A stretch of DNA of 62,062 nucleotides from Phycisphaerae bacterium (GTDB lineage: Bacteria; Planctomycetota; Phycisphaerae; SM23-33). Shown here one piece after another: positions 1-57,587 of this stretch. The stretch's first letter is position 1, and each line of letters begins with the position of its first letter. The DNA lies in the NCBI GenBank assembly GCA_016929245.1, contig JAFGJE010000251.1:1-62062 (forward strand), given 5' to 3'. The position numbers were made by a program, and so were the translations under genes. The notes under the pieces are model-generated. The model saw only the letters and a list, made by a program, of their open reading frames with translations, was not told the origin of the DNA and made no database searches.

Positions 1-2451
1 ATCGACGGAAAACTCATCGCCGCCAACGCCATGGGCCTGTGCGCGTATTTCGATTACGACCAGACGCACGCCCGCCTGACCGAACGCATGAACCACGCGC
101 CTCTCGAAGAACGCGTCGAACTGCTTCAGCAGCGCGGCGAACTGGCGTTCAACACCTTCCGATACCCCGACGCCCTGAACGATTACACCGCCGCCGAGGA
201 ATCGGCGAAATCCCTGCCCGACGGGGAACATAAACGCTTCGTCCTGACGGACCTTCGCCAGCGACGCTGCCGGACCTACGTCGCCCTGGGCAACCGCGAA
301 AAAGACGCCGACAAGGCGCTTTCGTGGTTCGCTAAAGCGCAAGACCTCGCCCGGACGAAGCAGCAGCGGGCCCACATGCGCATCCGCACCGCCAAGCTCC
401 TGGAATGGTTCGGACGGTTCCCCGAGGCGGTGGAAGTCGCCCAAGCCCTGGGCGAGGAATTCCCCGAAGAGCAGGTCGTGGACGTGCGCGTCGGAGCCGA
501 CGTCAACCCGCGAGAAATCTTCAGCGACTCGGATCCCATCCTCCCCGCGAAGGCGTGGGCGCATCAGTTCATCCGCCGGATTCTCAAAATCCACGGGCAG
601 GACGTGTACGCGAAATTCGACGACCGGGCGCGGCGGGCATTGCAACAGGCCCGGCAAGAAAACACGCCCGAAGCCTACCTGGCGATTCAACGGCGCTGGC
701 CTGTAAGCAAACACGTGCCCGACGCCTATTTCGCTGCCGCGGAAGTGTATTACGCCCGAGCGAAACAGACCGAAGACGCCGCGCGGGCCGACGAGAATCT
801 GCGCCAGTGCGTGGACCTGCTTCAGCAGGTGGTGCATCATCGGGACAATTCCCATTGGCCTTCGACGCTGGCGGCGCTGACCGCCGTCTACACCGCCGAC
901 GGCCGAGTGGTGCTGGCAAGCCAAACGCGGATGGAGCTGGACGATCTGCCTCCCGACACACCCATCGCCTTCGCGGACCTCCAGGGCCCGCTGGATACAA
1001 TATTGCGCGATCTGGACGAGGGAAAAATCAAAACCATCCAGACTCCGAAAACGAAAACACCCGAAAAAACGCTGCCGGTTCTCAATCCGCCCCTGCGGGA
1101 AATCTTCCGGCTGGACGACTCGACGACAAGACTTCTTTTCGACACCAACGGGAATCCCCTCCGCCTGGGGAACATCGTTTTCGTCCAACAAGGCGACGAA
1201 ATCCTTCTGCTGGACACCTCCGCCGCCGGCGCCGAAAACGCCGTTCGCGCCGCGGCGCTGACGAAGATTCGTTATTCGCGGGGACAGAATTTTTACGTTG
1301 GCATCAGTCGGCACGGAAACATCGTCGCGGTCGCGAACAACCAACGCGTCAGCGTCTTTCAAACCGACACCTGCAAACTGCTCCGGCAGGAGGACTGGTC
1401 CCATTACGGCTTCCGGGACGTCATGAGCGTCGGCGTCGGCGACGACCGGATCGTGGTGCTGGATGCACACAGCCGCATGAAGGTGATCGATATCGCCACG
1501 GGCGAGGTGCGATGGAAATACCCGCCGAAGGAGCCCCGGCGCGGAAAACTCCCTCCCGCCATGCCCATCGAAGTCAGGGCCCCGGAGGCGCAGCGTGGAA
1601 ACGGACGCGCCCCCAACATTCGCGTCTCGCTGATCCCGCAAATCGCCGACGGCCTGATTATGGCGCCTATGTACACGGGGGACGGCGTCTACGGCGTATT
1701 CGACATCAACAGCGGGAAGCTGCTTTTATCGCACATCGCCATTCCCCGGAATGAGCTGCAACGTTTCTCCGGACATATTCAGGGGCAGCTCCTGGGCGAC
1801 GACCGACTGGTGATCGCGGTCAACGGGAAGCTGACGCTGTACGACTTGAAAAACGCGAAGAAACCGGTCCTGGAAACAACCGTACACACGTCCCGAGACG
1901 TCAACGGCAACCTCCTGGGATGGAACCGGGATTTCCTGGCGGTTCGGGGACCGAAGAACAACGTGCTGGTGTATTCCCTCCGGGATCCGACACGCAATCC
2001 AACGGCCTTATCGTTATCGCTGCCCAAGATCAAAGGTGAACTCGTTCCCCAAACGGCGATTCTGGACGAACAACGCGTCTATGTCTTCGTCTCGCGGGAT
2101 ATCGCGATACAGGCGCTCCCCGACCGAATACGATTCAAAGGCCTGGCGGTGACGGCGTTTGACCTTTCCTCCGGGAAGCAGTTATGGAGCCGCATACCCC
2201 TATCCATGGAGGCGTATAGCAAACTCAACCATACCGAAACACGACGATACCTGGTGCTGGATCTTTGGCCGAGCGACATCCAGGGTCAATGCCTGTTGAT
2301 CGAAAAAGCAACGGGCAGGATTGCCCAGCGCCTTGCGATTACGGAAAATCATTATGATGGAAAGGTCTGGCACTTTCATCGGCGTGCCGTTGTCACCAAC
2401 GGCCGGCTGGTTGTTGAAAACTTGAAAGGAATCGCTGTATACGGTCAATAA
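1..2451 (+). CDS. Large TPR-like + PQQ/BamB-type beta-propeller repeat protein (5'-truncated by window edge)
   Basis: Frame is open from base 1 (IDGKLIAANAM...). The N-terminal half is helical and TPR-like; the C-terminal half has beta-propeller-type repeats (IDIATGEVRWK, FDINSGKLL, AFDLSSGKQLWS). Confidence 0.65.
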   Translation: MDGKLIAANAMGLCAYFDYDQTHARLTERMNHAPLEERVELLQQRGELAFNTFRYPDALNDYTAAEESAKSLPDGEHKRFVLTDLRQRRCRTYVALGNREKDADKALSWFAKAQDLARTKQQRAHMRIRTAKLLEWFGRFPEAVEVAQALGEEFPEEQVVDVRVGADVNPREIFSDSDPILPAKAWAHQFIRRILKIHGQDVYAKFDDRARRALQQARQENTPEAYLAIQRRWPVSKHVPDAYFAAAEVYYARAKQTEDAARADENLRQCVDLLQQVVHHRDNSHWPSTLAALTAVYTADGRVVLASQTRMELDDLPPDTPIAFADLQGPLDTILRDLDEGKIKTIQTPKTKTPEKTLPVLNPPLREIFRLDDSTTRLLFDTNGNPLRLGNIVFVQQGDEILLLDTSAAGAENAVRAAALTKIRYSRGQNFYVGISRHGNIVAVANNQRVSVFQTDTCKLLRQEDWSHYGFRDVMSVGVGDDRIVVLDAHSRMKVIDIATGEVRWKYPPKEPRRGKLPPAMPIEVRAPEAQRGNGRAPNIRVSLIPQIADGLIMAPMYTGDGVYGVFDINSGKLLLSHIAIPRNELQRFSGHIQGQLLGDDRLVIAVNGKLTLYDLKNAKKPVLETTVHTSRDVNGNLLGWNRDFLAVRGPKNNVLVYSLRDPTRNPTALSLSLPKIKGELVPQTAILDEQRVYVFVSRDIAIQALPDRIRFKGLAVTAFDLSSGKQLWSRIPLSMEAYSKLNHTETRRYLVLDLWPSDIQGQCLLIEKATGRIAQRLAITENHYDGKVWHFHRRAVVTNGRLVVENLKGIAVYGQ

Positions 2452-2463
2452 TTCCGTTTGTTG

Positions 2464-2489
2464 CGCGGCGGGAATCCTTTCCCGCCGCG
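2464..2489. repeat. Perfect 11-bp hairpin (REP-like or terminator-like)
   Basis: CGCGGCGGGAA-TCCT-TTCCCGCCGCG between co-directional genes, with no U-tract. Confidence 0.6.
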
Positions 2490-2507
2490 TCGAGACGTGA
2501 GCATACG

Positions 2508-3650
2508 ATGACGTTACGAAACACGATCATTTCGGCGATGGTAATCGCGGCGCTGGCTTGTTGGCCGGCGGTGCACTGGCCCGCGCCGTCATCGGCGACG
2601 GCGGCGACGCCTTCGCGCGTCCTGCCGAAGATGGTCACCCGCGACACTGCCACGCGCGTCGACAAGGGGCTGCGCTACCTCGAACGCACCCAGCGACAGG
2701 ACGGCAGTTGGCTCAACAGCGGCGGATGGGGAGTCTATCCCGTCGTCATGACGTCGCTGGCGGGACTGGCGTTTCTCGCCAACGGTTCGACGCCGGAATC
2801 CGGGCCGTACCGACGCAGCGTTTCGCGGGCGCTGAACTACGTGCTGAACATCGCGGAGGCGGGTCGGCAGCGGAACAAAAAGGAAATCCTCATCGCCGGG
2901 GAGGGGTCGGAATCCCGCAGCATGTACGGCCATGGGTTCGGGATGCTGTTCCTCGCGGAGTGTTACGGGATGGAGGGCGACAAATCCACCGACCGCGCGC
3001 AGCGCATCCGGGACGTGCTGGAAGGGGCGGTGAACTTAACCGCCCGGGCGCAGTCCGACCTGGGACCCGCGCAGAAGCACGCCGGCGGATGGATTTACAC
3101 CCCCAACGGCCGAAGCGACGAAGGTTCGGTGACCGTCACGCAACTCCAGGCCCTCCGCGCCTGCCGCAACGTCGGGATCAAGGTGCCCCGCAGCACGATC
3201 GAACGGGCCGTGCTGTACCTGAAATTCTGCCAGCAGTCCGACGGGGGGATCTGCTATTCCGCGCAAAGTCGCGGCAACAGCCTGCCGGCGATCTCCGCGG
3301 CGGCGGTGGCGTGTTTTTATTCCGCGGGCATTTACGACACCCGCACCGGCGGCGCCGGCGTCGAGGCGAAGATGGTCGAACGACTCATCGAATACTGCAA
3401 GAAAAACGTCCGCGTCGAAGGCGGCGCGGGACATTACTTTTATACACAACTGTACTATTCCCAGGGAATGTACCAGCGCGGCGGGAAGGACTGGGTGGAC
3501 TATTACCCCCGCATCCGCGACCGCCTCGCGGGCATGCAGGCGCCGGACGGAAATTGGAACGGCGACGGTATCGGCCCGATCTACGGAACCGCCATCGCCT
3601 GCATGATCCTGCAACTACCCTACGGCTACCTGCCGGTGATGCAAAGATAG
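2508..3650 (+). CDS. Prenyltransferase/squalene oxidase repeat-containing secreted protein
   Basis: Signal peptide; QW-like repeats ([32 protein letters not shown]); located next to a MoxR ATPase. Confidence 0.85.
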
Positions 3651-6409: not shown

Positions 6410-6876
6410 AGAAGTTTGACCACAGAGACACAGAGGGCACAGAGGAAAGAGTTTTTCAATCAAACTCTTACGTATATAAACGTAATAGTGTTTTTTCGAC
6501 GCAGCAATATCCCTGTAAGGATATTACGGAGAAAATTATCGGCTGTGCAATTGCGGTTCATCGTGAATTGGCTGCAGGATTTATTGAATCTATTTATGAA
6601 AATGCACTTGTTTATGAACTCACAAAACAATCGCTAACCGTTGAAAAACAAAAATCGTTAGAGGTTTTTTACGATGGTGTCTTTGTCGGAGAACATCGGG
6701 CGGATTTAATTGTCGAAGGAAAGGTAGTTGTTGAATTAAAAGCCATTCGTGAATTGACTCCACAACATACATCACAATTGATGAGCACAATGAAGGCAGC
6801 AAAATTGAAAGTAGGTTTGTTAATCAATTTCGCGGAAGCACGATTGATCGACGGAGTACAACGAGTCGTTCTATAA
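6406..6876 (+). CDS. GxxExxY protein (PD-(D/E)XK nuclease fold)
   Basis: GFIESIY, RADLIVEGKVVVELKA, GLLINF. The ATGA start overlaps the DUF58 stop. AT-rich (about 37% GC in a sampled line) relative to the flanks. Confidence 0.92.
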   Translation: MKKFDHRDTEGTEERVFQSNSYVYKRNSVFSTQQYPCKDITEKIIGCAIAVHRELAAGFIESIYENALVYELTKQSLTVEKQKSLEVFYDGVFVGEHRADLIVEGKVVVELKAIRELTPQHTSQLMSTMKAAKLKVGLLINFAEARLIDGVQRVVL

Positions 6877-6912
6877 CAACAACTCTGTGACCTCTGTGCC
6901 TCTGTGGTCAAA
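6415..6912. mobile_element. Candidate element: GxxExxY gene bounded by 30-bp terminal inverted repeats (family B)
   Basis: Left arm 6415-6444 TTTGACCACAGAGACACAGAGGGCACAGAG; right arm 6883-6912 reverse complement TTTGACCACAGAGGCACAGAGGTCACAGAG (28/30 identical). GC drops inside, and the unit interrupts the MoxR operon. Mobility is inferred. Confidence 0.6.
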
Positions 6913-34585: not shown

Positions 34586-34628
34586 TGTCATCCTGAGCGG
34601 AGCGAAGCGGAGTCGAAGGACCCCACGC
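34586..34628 (+). repeat. Family A copy A10 (single)
   Basis: TGTCATCCTGAGCGGAGCGAAGCGGAGTCGAAGGACCCCACGC. Confidence 0.92.
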
Positions 34629-34682
34629 ACTCGAGACTTGGCGGGACAGAGCCCCGCCAAGCTCAAACAAAAATTTAACGTC

Positions 34683-35447
34683 ATGAATCCAGCACCGCAA
34701 AAATACAAATTCCTCGGCTGTGAAATTCTCTACCGGGAAGCCTGTCACCTCGCCGCCGTCGGCCCGAACGTCGTGGACGTGGAATTTCTCCCCAAGGGAC
34801 TGCACGACCTGGAAACGAAGGACATGGTCGCCCGCGTGCAGGCGGCCGTCGACGCGACCGACGCGAACCAGGGATACCGGGCCGTCCTGCTGGGATACGC
34901 CCGCTGCAACGACGGACTGGTCGGCGTTACCGCTCGGGATATCCCCTTGGTGATTCCCAAGGCCCACGATTGCATCACGCTGCTGTTCGGTTCGCGGAAA
35001 ACGTTTCAGGCGTATTTCAACGAGAATCCGGGAACGTACTACAAATCCACCGGCTGGGTGGAACGCGACCCGGAAGAGAACATGGACCGACCCGCCTACG
35101 GGACGACGGGGGTGATGAAAAACCTGGGACTGACGGAAACCTACGAAGAACTCGTCGCCAAACACGGCAGGGAGAACGCGGACTATATCATTGAATCCCT
35201 CGGCGGCTGGGAGAATGCCTACTCCCGCCTGTGCTACATTCACATGGGCCTGTGCGACGAAACGCCGTTTGAGTCTCGCGCGCAGGACATCGCCCGGAAG
35301 CACGGCTGGTCGTATGAACGAAAAGAAGGGGATATTTCCCTGCTGCGAAAGATGTTCCTGGGGCAATGGGACGACGATTTCATCGTCATCCCCCCCGGCG
35401 GAAGCATCGTCGCGAGAAACGACGAGAATATTCTGGGAGTGAAGTAA
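34683..35447 (+). CDS. DUF1638 domain protein
   Basis: GCEILYRE, GLHD, LLGYARC, PKAHDCITLLFGS, TYYKSTGW. Confidence 0.8.
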   Translation: MNPAPQKYKFLGCEILYREACHLAAVGPNVVDVEFLPKGLHDLETKDMVARVQAAVDATDANQGYRAVLLGYARCNDGLVGVTARDIPLVIPKAHDCITLLFGSRKTFQAYFNENPGTYYKSTGWVERDPEENMDRPAYGTTGVMKNLGLTETYEELVAKHGRENADYIIESLGGWENAYSRLCYIHMGLCDETPFESRAQDIARKHGWSYERKEGDISLLRKMFLGQWDDDFIVIPPGGSIVARNDENILGVK

Positions 35448-35454
35448 ACCAATA

Positions 35455-35568
35455 TTTTTGACCACAGAGGCACAGAGGCACAATTTCATATTTCAAATTT
35501 CAAATTTGAAATTTGAAATATGAAATCGTAATGATTCTGTGTGTCCTCTGTGCCTTTGTGGTCAAAAA
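35455..35568. repeat. Gene-less family B inverted doublet enclosing a perfect 44-bp palindrome
   Basis: Left TTTTTGACCACAGAGGCACAGAGGCACA; right reverse complement TTTTTGACCACAAAGGCACAGAGGACACACAG; inner 35483-35526 ATTTCATATTTCAAATTTCAAA|TTTGAAATTTGAAATATGAAAT. Confidence 0.9.
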
Positions 35569-35574
35569 ACTCTT

Positions 35575-36057
35575 TCAATACCAAACCGTGATAATCAGGT
35601 TCGGCTCGGCGCGTTTTCCTTCCAGAGTTCCGATCACCTGGGCGATGTGCTTAACCTCGATCCCCTCCTCGTCGATCCAGTCGTTGATCATGCTTTCCAG
35701 ATGCAGCAGCGGGCCGTCGGCGATTTTGGAATAGAACATACGGACGCGCGTCGCGCCTTTTCCGGTCAGGTTCATTTCGCGTTTGAAATCGGCCTTGTGC
35801 GTCAGGCCTCTGGCGGCCGCCCCGGCGACGCGCTTCTTCATTCCCGTTGAGGAAGTTTCCGCGGGAGTTTCCCCATCGTCGAAGTCCACCAGCGCGATGG
35901 GCTCGTCGTCCTCGATCACCTTGGGTTTCGGCGGCGGAACGGGTACGGGAACGGGTTGCGGGCCTTGCCCCGGAGGGGAAACCGGCACGGGTTGCGGTTC
36001 GTCCTCCGCGTCCAGAGTCACCCATTCTTCCTCGTCGTGGTGCAGATCGTCAGCCAT
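35575..36057 (-). CDS. Hypothetical protein (acidic/Pro-rich N-terminus, small C-terminal domain)
   Basis: AGGAG ribosome-binding site before ATG 36057; C-terminal GATRVRMFYSKI...INDWID...IEVKH. Confidence 0.75.
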   Translation of the reverse strand: MADDLHHDEEEWVTLDAEDEPQPVPVSPPGQGPQPVPVPVPPPKPKVIEDDEPIALVDFDDGETPAETSSTGMKKRVAGAAARGLTHKADFKREMNLTGKGATRVRMFYSKIADGPLLHLESMINDWIDEEGIEVKHIAQVIGTLEGKRAEPNLIITVWY

Positions 36058-36192
36058 GGCTCGCTCCTGTCGCTTACGAATCGAAAGAAATGATATCGGC
36101 AACGCCTGCCGTTTGGTGTATTATAATGCCTGTTCGGAACGGGTCAAGTCGCCCCTTTGAGTCGAAACCGGAACTCCACACGCGAGGCGTAC

Positions 36193-40746: not shown

Positions 40747-40825
40747 CTCTCACGCGCCCGTCGCCGCATCTTCCGAATGCGACGATCTTGCGTCCCTTCC
40801 ACTCGGCCGAACTTCGTGAGAGAAT

Positions 40826-40892
<67 letters not shown>

Positions 40893-40986
40893 TCGCCGCC
40901 TGCCCCTTAGGGGTGGTAAATCTTCAGTTTTTTAGAGGTTTCGTGAAAATTAATGTTGATGTTTTTCGGAACGTCCCCTGGATATA

Positions 40987-56978: not shown

Positions 56979-57587
56979 TCAATTTCTTTTCCGTCGTCGC
57001 AACGCCAATGCGCCGAATCCCAGCAGCGTCAGCGTCGTCGGTTCGGGAGTCGCGCCGGCTTTGATGGGAGTATCTACTTCCGTTTCATACGCATAGCCGG
57101 ATATGAACAGCTTATTGGCGTTTCTATCGTATTGGGCCGCGATCCAGCCGTAATGCGTTTGGCTGTCCAGTTTGAAACTGACGCCAAGATAATAAAGGGA
57201 ACCATTCTCCCAGTCACCTATGGGATCATCGTTATGCACGACAACCAGATTCTTTGTTCCTCCACCTCCGCTAAGATCGCCGGGAATGTCGTCATCGAAA
57301 TCATACGCCGTCGCATAAAACCCACCGGCGACCCATGGGCTGTAAGAGCTTTCGGTGTTGGTGACGATCGTAAAATGATCGTCGTTATCGTAAAAATCAT
57401 ATTTCATGTTGAACTGTCGTTCTTCTTCAGCCAGGAATTTGATTTCGAGATTGTTGTTTTCCGACCAGACGGCGGTGTCCGTAATGTCGGTGTATTGGAT
57501 TTTGGCTTCGGCGGAATTTCCGCTTCCTAAAAGCAAAGCCGTCACGAGCAGACACGATACATACAGCGATACTCTGTGGTGGAACAT
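56979..57587 (-). CDS. PEP-CTERM sorting domain protein
   Basis: AGGAGG ribosome-binding site, signal peptide, C-terminal TPEPTTLTLLGFGALALRRRKRN. Confidence 0.9.
   Translation of the reverse strand: MFHHRVSLYVSCLLVTALLLGSGNSAEAKIQYTDITDTAVWSENNNLEIKFLAEEERQFNMKYDFYDNDDHFTIVTNTESSYSPWVAGGFYATAYDFDDDIPGDLSGGGGTKNLVVVHNDDPIGDWENGSLYYLGVSFKLDSQTHYGWIAAQYDRNANKLFISGYAYETEVDTPIKAGATPEPTTLTLLGFGALALRRRKRN

Follow-up and report, generated by a model that had tools for sequence, protein, structure and literature searches.

The spacer between two convergent genes in the window analysed here, a stretch of 62,062 nucleotides that forms one contig (C78) of a 4.16 Mb Phycisphaerae genome (G000; 263 contigs, 58.5% GC), holds a short hairpin-forming inverted repeat. 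The same kind of inverted ends flank a gene 29 kb away. This is the GxxExxY cassette at 6415-6912 (+), whose product, encoded at 6478-6876, matches TIGR04256 (E 7e-41) and PF13366 (E 8e-40) and has the PD-(D/E)XK residues in place, as read from the sequence. What is the gene-less unit, does it belong to a family that moves, and which enzyme could act on it? A sequence-only reading had proposed that it carries the ends of the cassette around no gene at all, and both the sequence and the list of open reading frames (ORFs) confirm this.

Structure and setting of the unit

The inverted repeat, extended outward, spans exactly 35455-35568, that is 114 bp, and no ORF lies within it. The unit is a near-perfect hairpin in which each arm consists of TTTTTGACC followed by three CACAGAG-type words. 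The left arm (35455-35482, +) reads TTTTT-GAC and then CACAGAG, CACAGAG and CACA, the words separated by single G residues. Its third word is truncated by the start of a perfect 44-bp AT-rich palindrome (35483-35526), which forms the hairpin tip and consists of the heptamers ATTTCAT, ATTTCAA and ATTTCAA followed by their inverse. Next comes an unpaired 13-nt bulge, CGTAATGATTCTG (35527-35539, +), the sole asymmetric piece. The right arm (35540-35568, -) reads, as its reverse complement, TTTTT-GAC and then CACAAAG, CACAGAG and CACA, separated by G and by GA. The earlier description of a 114-bp unit around a perfect palindrome of heptamers is thus accurate. The CGTAAT of the bulge bears a weak resemblance to the core of the 72/74-bp subfamily described below.

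Family members are recognised by a tag and three CAC(A/G)GAG words spaced by 8-10 nt, and the unit has this arm, with the third word truncated on the left and degenerate on the right. It also has the AT-rich variable core that extends the hairpin. The arm sequence TTTGACCACAGAG lies at 35457-35469 (+) and its inverted partner TTTGACCACAAAG, with one mismatch, at 35554-35566 (-). Matches of the TTTGACCACAGAG type occur five times in the window where 0.84 are expected, a number reached in 0 of 100 shuffles. A sequence at 57572-57584 (-), TTCCACCACAGAG, with two mismatches, stands alone without additional heptamers and probably reflects chance or decay, not an arm.

The predicted fold of the unit has an energy of -68.4 kcal/mol on the plus strand (z -14.0) and of -65.5 kcal/mol on the minus strand (z -13.3). 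The 13-nt bulge and one mismatch are the only breaks in the hairpin. The core alone has 25% GC and folds with z -7.5, the most extreme value among 40 family cores, of which 15 fold alone at z below -2. The predicted potential of the unit to extrude a cruciform is real.

Upstream of the unit lies a DUF1638 gene (34683-35447, +; PF07796, E 5e-33), whose TAA stop codon is 8 nt before the unit. Its start is probably the ATG at 34683, since a longer ORF call starting with TTG is overlapped by a TGTCATCCTGAGCG-type repeat. This repeat, of an Ssn-linked family, occupies 34586-34630 directly 5' of the gene. On the other side a conserved 175-aa ORF (35575-36102, -) ends 6 nt past the unit with its stop codon at 35575-35577. 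It has homologues in 48 of the 61 relatives, and no Pfam or NCBIfam family was found for it. The two genes do converge on the unit, as had been noted. No exact match to the DUF1638 protein is on record in other assemblies.

The two flanking genes are adjacent in none of the 61 relatives and lie on different contigs in every one of them. Because they are never neighbours, the unit sits at a lineage-specific rearrangement point. It could have arisen by insertion after the rearrangement, as a recombinant of two elements, or through a contig misjoin. The 61 relatives offer no syntenic counterpart that could serve as an empty site. In the congener G001, the regions downstream of the DUF1638 gene and of the 175-aa gene contain no such element. 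The G001 spacer downstream of its DUF1638 gene (L002, 2270-2375), which corresponds to the one holding the hairpin unit in G000, has two direct copies of TTATTGCACGGCGTCCACCTG.

The sole direct repeat flanking the unit is CAATA (35450-35454 and 35576-35580), with an asymmetric boundary. It was considered as a target duplication and rejected. The repeat is probably due to chance because the sequence before insertion would lack the stop codon of the conserved 175-aa gene. The unit carries no outer inverted ends, and no sister copies of its core or bulge were found, which makes it a singleton variant with a unique core. It had been put forward as the best internal evidence of mobility. As a singleton with neither outer ends, a convincing target duplication nor a syntenic empty site, it does not fill that role.

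Copy number, gene context and mobility of the family

Arms with three or more CAC(A/G)GAG-type words number 44 in the genome, and another 26 arms have CAC(A/G)AAG words. There are 44 inverted pairs, of which almost every one measures 50-215 bp and lacks a gene, so the unit is far from being the only paired copy in the genome. About 40 are gene-less hairpins. The CACAGAG heptamer is under-represented genome-wide (218 occurrences against about 544 expected), and 142 of the 218 (65%) are found in arms. The cores of the family average 26% GC against 58.5% for the genome.

Gene-less copies outnumber cassettes by about 40 to 1 in this genome, and they are also the dominant form in other phyla. Two parts of the sequence-only reading must be revised accordingly. 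The gene-less form, with about 40 copies, is the norm and not a rare emptied cassette or relic. Descent from a gene-bearing cassette is not borne out either, given the excess of gene-less copies and the lack of internal homology. Derivation by deletion from the cassette in the window in particular was rejected, since the two share nothing internal beyond AG-rich and T-rich stretches.

Another gene-less copy in the window, at 40818-40942 (+), has a core of the 74-bp type, retains part of an outer end and has a 20-nt mini-unit, CCCCTAAGGGGCAGGCGGCG, in its right arm. Hybrid elements also occur. The one at C17 2878-2990 combines a CACAAAG arm with ACGAATAAG and the one at C143 13930-14015 a CACAGAG arm with a CTGAG-type arm, so that in both the arms are unpairable.

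The gene context of the copies was taken from a simple gene call that covered 84% of the genome. The 39 classifiable copies comprise 21 in '--', 15 in '++', 3 in convergent and 0 in divergent settings; one copy outside these 39, on contig C12, is possibly divergent. Of all gaps, 15% by number and 23% by length are divergent, and finding 0 of 39 copies in such gaps has P of about 0.002. The distance from a copy to the neighbouring gene is mostly 5-60 nt, and copies often lie shortly behind stop codons. From the gene orientations and these distances it follows that the copies reside in spacers that are transcribed, for the most part within operons. Convergent neighbours, as the unit has them, are a minority case (3 of 39).

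Filled and empty sites were sought by taking 20 loci of G001 and mapping their flanks onto G000. Six of the G001 elements are absent from the orthologous G000 sites, which lie on C107, C243, C212 (about 47220), C207, C216 and C257. At the C107 site the genes are 1 nt apart in G000 and a 360-bp element is present in G001. At C243 they are 7 nt apart in G000 and the G001 site holds 356 bp. At C207 a single AAGT in G000 corresponds to AAGT on both sides of the element in G001. One site is shared between the two genomes (C212 46053 in G000, L027 4740 in G001). There the arms are near-identical and the cores are unalignable, while the spacer is still about 75% alike.

At two sites G000 carries other sequences where G001 has a family copy. 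At about 18125 on C216 there is a GC-rich hairpin with a T-run that resembles an intrinsic terminator, and a CACAAAG hairpin occupies the same post-stop site in G001 (L041 1968). At about 4400 on C243 a CGTGGTT...AACCACG palindrome of another family takes the post-stop position that a CACAGAG element has in G001 (L035 4753).

The 72/74-bp core subfamily extends past the CACAGAG arms to 12-nt outer inverted ends, GAGAATTCTGAA and GAGACCTCTGAA. Perfect 4-bp duplications lie outside the GAGAATTCTGAA-type ends in 12 of 17 usable copies, compared with 9 of 272 non-cognate flank pairs. A 165-bp subfamily in G001 is bordered by (A/T)TAA at either end, and the TAA on the left frequently doubles as the stop codon of the gene before it. 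Such (A/T)TAA flanks and 4-bp duplications are signatures of insertion. Since the duplications abut the outer ends, the CACAGAG arms may not themselves be the ends that are cut and joined.

These data show the family to be mobile, with elements gained or lost at exact intergenic positions. The 4-bp duplications together with the filled and empty sites speak directly, at the level of sequence, for transposition of at least part of the family. The proposal that the family moves is borne out by the six sites filled in G001 and empty in G000, by the duplications in one subfamily and by a patchy distribution among relatives.

This distribution was surveyed with the 17-nt arm pattern ACCACAGAGRCACRGAG, which is present in 14 of the 61 relatives; a reversed control pattern gave zero everywhere. 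G001 has 146 matches, G003 72, G013 61, G048 45, the own genome 40 and G051 36, and most others have none. Beyond the relatives, at least 117 contigs from at least 12 phyla contain the exact 27-nt arm GACCACAGAGRCACAGAGRNCACAGAG. The hosts include Acidobacteriota, Gemmatimonadota, Planctomycetota, Verrucomicrobiota, Armatimonadota, Chloroflexota and Myxococcota, as well as Alpha- and Gammaproteobacteria, Bacteroidota, Cyanobacteria, Chlamydiota and others. Complete chromosomes of Sorangium (Myxococcota) are among them, and Magnetospirillum strains have family copies too. Almost all of the 65 arm pairs among the GACCACAGAGRCACAGAGRNCACAGAG contigs listed are gene-less and measure 50-300 bp. The cores match the GC content of the host across phyla, and several lineages have additional inverted layers of their own around the arms. 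The arm, often internal, is therefore the constant part of the element.

No paper was found that names the repeat or carries the arm sequences, and none of the papers found on GxxExxY or PF13366 concerns repeats. This hairpin-repeat family is widespread, mobile and little described, and apparently new to the literature.

GxxExxY, nesting and the competing explanations

Within its family of hairpin repeats, which is linked to GxxExxY, the unit is nothing out of the ordinary. The genome encodes four GxxExxY genes, each within inverted arms of a different tandem word: CACAGAG, CAC(A/G)AAG, GACGAATAAG and (A/C)CTGAG. Sampling 24 genomes of the class gave 64 GxxExxY genes, and about 60 of them have inverted arms of tandem words on both sides. 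The words fit C[AG]CN[AG]A[GT], and other phyla follow the same pattern. The GxxExxY protein tree tracks the class of word, with 13 changes compared with 30 in shuffles, and 0 of 200 shuffles came as low. Expansion in G000 is limited to the word types that have a resident cassette, plus CACGAAT arms that fit the clade of the gene on C181; no arms of eleven other cassette word types are present in G000.

The co-occurrence of arms and gene also holds at the level of whole genomes. All 12 relatives with at least two arms carry GxxExxY. The gene is likewise present in all 14 genomes with arms that were found via other loci (two are among the relatives just counted), and none of 14 controls exceeded the cut-off. 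Some observations fit this correspondence less neatly. The two GxxExxY genes detected in G001, which has 146 arms in a 90% complete assembly, have CACAAAG/hybrid and CACGGAT arms and not pure CACAGAG arms. The copy number of GxxExxY does not scale with the number of arms, many genomes have cassettes and no expansion, and CACAGAG arms accompany two distant GxxExxY clades. The link between arms and gene is supported indirectly, by co-occurrence and shared descent, a pattern that a passenger gene would largely share. A sequence search of solved structures found no relative of GxxExxY.

Two further cassettes were observed. In G013 (C26 1-330; L229) a GxxExxY cassette with a CACAGAG arm occupies the same site as that at 6415-6912 in the window, directly before the same gene (MPFIHP...). 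Because a relative at the genus level has it at the same site, the cassette in the window is old and vertically inherited. At C77 9903-10339, arms of the CACAAAG type surround, in place of GxxExxY, a membrane-anchored ORF of 121 aa that has no Pfam family.

In our preferred reading, which we regard as reasonably probable, the unit belongs to the gene-less and non-autonomous copies of a mobile hairpin element with arms built of words. The constant part of such an element is an inverted pair of arms, each made of the tag (A/T)TTGACC and three CAC(A/G)GAG words 8-10 nt apart. The centre can vary freely. In the unit it is a second, independently recurring palindrome of ATTTCAA heptamers, which makes the whole one long hairpin with an AT-rich tip. 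The arms may be the cognate DNA site of the GxxExxY PD-(D/E)XK nuclease, recognised as an extruded or single-stranded hairpin. The enzyme would then act in trans on gene-less copies, much as RAYT does on REP/REPIN and Ssn on SRM/NTS hairpins, and mobilisation of the family by GxxExxY may be envisaged. The unit itself would be an old or rearranged member that now does no more than occupy the 3' spacer between two convergent genes.

A different enzyme could account for the mobility. The family may be an ordinary MITE moved in trans by a conventional DDE-type transposase that acts at the outermost inverted ends, with the CACAGAG arms and GxxExxY as passengers. The unit does resemble a MITE in being small and non-coding and in having terminal inverted repeats and many copies. 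The 12-nt outer ends with 4-bp duplications in the 72/74-bp subfamily (12 of 17), the WTAA on both sides of the 165-bp subfamily in G001, the clean filled and empty sites and the lineage-specific inverted layers around the arms in other phyla all agree with such an enzyme. However, the gene-bearing partners encode GxxExxY or the 121-aa protein, and no transposase was found between family ends in G000. The long arm pairs that were considered as candidates enclose GxxExxY, the 121-aa ORF, or host genes that lie between two separate elements. Moreover, the part conserved across phyla is the internal arm and not an outer end, the co-occurrence with GxxExxY is complete in both genome sets (12/12 and 14/14), and the unit is a copy without outer ends. 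We consider a conventional transposase possible and, on balance, improbable.

The nesting of repeats within repeats could point to another route. Cores of ATTTCAA-type heptamers occur three times in the genome: in the unit, at C212 15554 within CACAGAG arms, and at C131 11549 within GCGGATT words, which belong to another family. The central 30 nt of the palindrome were also found in six metagenome contigs of 30-63% GC, none of which has CACAGAG arms. Because the AT-rich palindrome recurs independently elsewhere, it is nested within the unit, as the sequence-only reading had supposed. Two of the metagenome contigs, L221 (4655-7975, -) and L220, are near-identical, have 63% GC and come from an unrelated organism. 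Their leucyl-tRNA synthetase ORF carries the palindrome in frame at the start of the editing domain, where it encodes FQISNLKFEI. The same ORF has an in-frame, IS200-like Y1_Tnp domain at residues 526-616 (E 1.7e-07).

Nesting of this kind is general in the genome, and two mini-units of 18-20 nt reside inside the arms of up to three repeat families. The first, of about 18 nt, is CGAAGATCCC(A/T)TAGGGA(G/C), with 15 copies at no more than two mismatches, and it is also present in G001 (L034 3552). It is located within the arms of three families of hairpin repeats, CACAGAG, GATTGCGG and ACGAATAAG; sites are C120 11943, C188 4069, C235 9551, C42 34670, C155 7070, C159 3082, C263 2990, C184 62 and C233 12561/12645. 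The second, the 20-nt CCCCT(T/A)AGGGGCAGGCGGCG, stands in for the outer AGAG in CACAGAG arms, at times symmetrically in both. It is found at 40894-40913 of the window and at C42 21995, C86 8679/8757 and C126 18296.

Many restriction enzymes of the PD-(D/E)XK fold cut with a 4-nt stagger. The tips of hairpins might themselves be targets of insertion, so that elements grow like nested dolls. GxxExxY would cut extruded hairpins or AT-rich targets with such a stagger, and hairpin DNA would be pasted in. The ATTTCAA palindrome would be an independent micro-element, shared across phyla, that landed in the tip of a CACAGAG hairpin, and one mechanism would account for all layers, including the outer palindromes and the mini-units in the arms. 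We judge this combined scenario unlikely. If true, it would represent a transposase-free route of DNA mobility common to many phyla.

The remaining biological alternative is that the host keeps the hairpins as structural signals in RNA or DNA, either to stabilise or process the 3' ends of mRNA or to terminate transcription in both directions, with their repetitive nature being secondary. The predicted hairpin is very stable on both strands, copies follow stop codons at a distance of 5-60 nt and keep out of divergent promoter gaps, and at one orthologous site a GC-rich hairpin with a T-run in G000 takes the place of a CACAAAG hairpin in G001. The gene-bearing relatives also share the build of 23S rRNA intervening sequences, in which RNase III cuts the stem. 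A terminator function, which had been suggested for the unit, nevertheless finds little agreement with its sequence. An intrinsic terminator has a GC-rich stem directly followed by a U-tract. Each strand of the unit has a T-run before the stem and an A-run behind it, which leaves no U-tract after the stem. A scan of the unit found no terminator, and a promoter scan gave one weak promoter-like hit. In addition, 36 of the 39 classifiable copies lie between closely spaced co-directional genes, where a strong terminator would be harmful. A role as terminator is thus unlikely for the unit.

An effect through RNA, such as RNase III cutting of the 27-bp stem, is possible. Among the 36 co-directional copies, however, the sense RNA is predicted to be more stable in 17 and the antisense RNA in 18 (Wilcoxon p 0.49), so the arm mismatches are not biased towards G-U pairs on the transcript. 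An identical 27-nt sequence in 12 phyla is not something that an RNA stem would require. Against Rfam, the unit stays below the gathering score of every family, the best hits being microRNA-precursor models (32.7 bits against 85). The metatranscriptome of the same study, available as contigs alone, has nothing at the unit locus and is uninformative. A signal maintained by the host is, in our estimate, distinctly unlikely as the main explanation.

Least probable is an assembly artefact, in which two loci were joined at a shared palindrome or arm or the assembler created a fold-back: synteny breaks exactly at the unit, its flanking genes are never adjacent in 61 relatives, and many G001 contigs end in family copies, but the architecture of the unit is typical of a family that is present in complete chromosomes too. 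The arms differ by one mismatch, by the spacing of the third word and by the 13-nt bulge, so the unit is not a fold-back copy. The 44-bp palindrome occurs once in the assembly, which leaves no second locus for confusion. Of the 31-mers sampled, 0.99 are found in the Logan contigs of the probable source run, 31-mers being too short to span the palindrome. The same contigs, which covered 56% of the run, contain a 44-nt unitig identical to the palindrome, and the unitigs flanking the unit are not among them.

Comparison with known systems

Hairpin-forming MITEs with long inverted ends include the Correia elements of Neisseria, ERIC of enterobacteria, and RUP and BOX. Like the family described here, they are small, non-coding elements with terminal inverted repeats that form hairpins, insert into transcribed intergenic regions, generate short duplications and vary in presence and absence. 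They differ in that the gene-bearing partner of our family encodes no known transposase and in that its conserved arm lies inside variable outer layers. To our knowledge, none of them is as phylogenetically wide as a 27-nt arm found in at least 12 phyla.

The small dispersed repeats of cyanobacteria offer a parallel for the nesting. Elhai et al. 2008 (Genome Res) reportedly described very short palindromes that reside inside other repeats with the hairpin kept. The ATTTCAA palindrome and the two mini-units of about 18-20 nt are nested in the same way, and they differ in sequence and in phylum. The ORF-bearing intervening sequences of 23S rRNA (PMC4990558) resemble the gene-bearing relatives of the unit in their length of about 450-600 bp, their one small ORF and their stem-forming inverted ends. 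The unit itself has no ORF and lies outside rRNA, between protein-coding genes.

The closest parallels are found among systems that pair a small nuclease with hairpin repeats. As in REP/REPIN-RAYT (PMC3116915), short intergenic hairpin repeats reach copy numbers from tens to hundreds, those without a gene are non-autonomous, and each family has one small nuclease-type gene between inverted copies of its presumed target repeat. The RAYT protein is a Y1 HUH nuclease, whereas GxxExxY is a PD-(D/E)XK protein (PF13366) of predicted activity. REPs are palindromes of 20-40 nt tagged by GTAG/CGTC, in contrast to the tandem 7-nt words, the (A/T)TTGACC-ACAGAG start and the long variable cores of the CACAGAG family. 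Neither the HUH RAYT gene nor the GTAG/CGTC tag is associated with the family of the unit. REPINs are not known to make target duplications and one CACAGAG subfamily makes 4-bp ones. The only full RAYT-like Y1_Tnp gene of the genome (C138 2726-3070, in the region 2400-3400) is flanked by its own, different REPs (GTCCCGAAGGGACG...GCCGGGG...).

The Ssn nucleases (GIY-YIG) and their SRM/NTS repeats (PMC11893778) have the same layout. A single-domain nuclease gene is flanked by hairpin repeats of 20-50 nt that are dispersed genome-wide, variants of the nuclease are paired with their own variants of the repeat, and many phyla are involved. The demonstrated role of Ssn is to cut incoming ssDNA during transformation (PMC11893778). 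The differences are in the nuclease fold, the flanked gene here being PF13366/TIGR04256 and not GIY-YIG, and in the repeat sequence. Ssn repeats have also not been reported as insertions with target duplications. Since the RAYT gene has REPs of its own, this genome houses three parallel systems of a nuclease plus hairpin repeats, namely RAYT, Ssn GIY-YIG and GxxExxY.

The gene-less copies matter for annotation, as they give rise to spurious small ORFs and broken assemblies, and they serve as exact markers of insertions and deletions when related genomes are compared. Should GxxExxY be the partner enzyme, the arms would provide a concrete candidate substrate for a large protein family of unknown function. 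The family would then be a third, independent version of a small nuclease with its own hairpin repeats, after RAYT/REP and Ssn/SRM, this time built on the PD-(D/E)XK fold and spread over at least 12 phyla.
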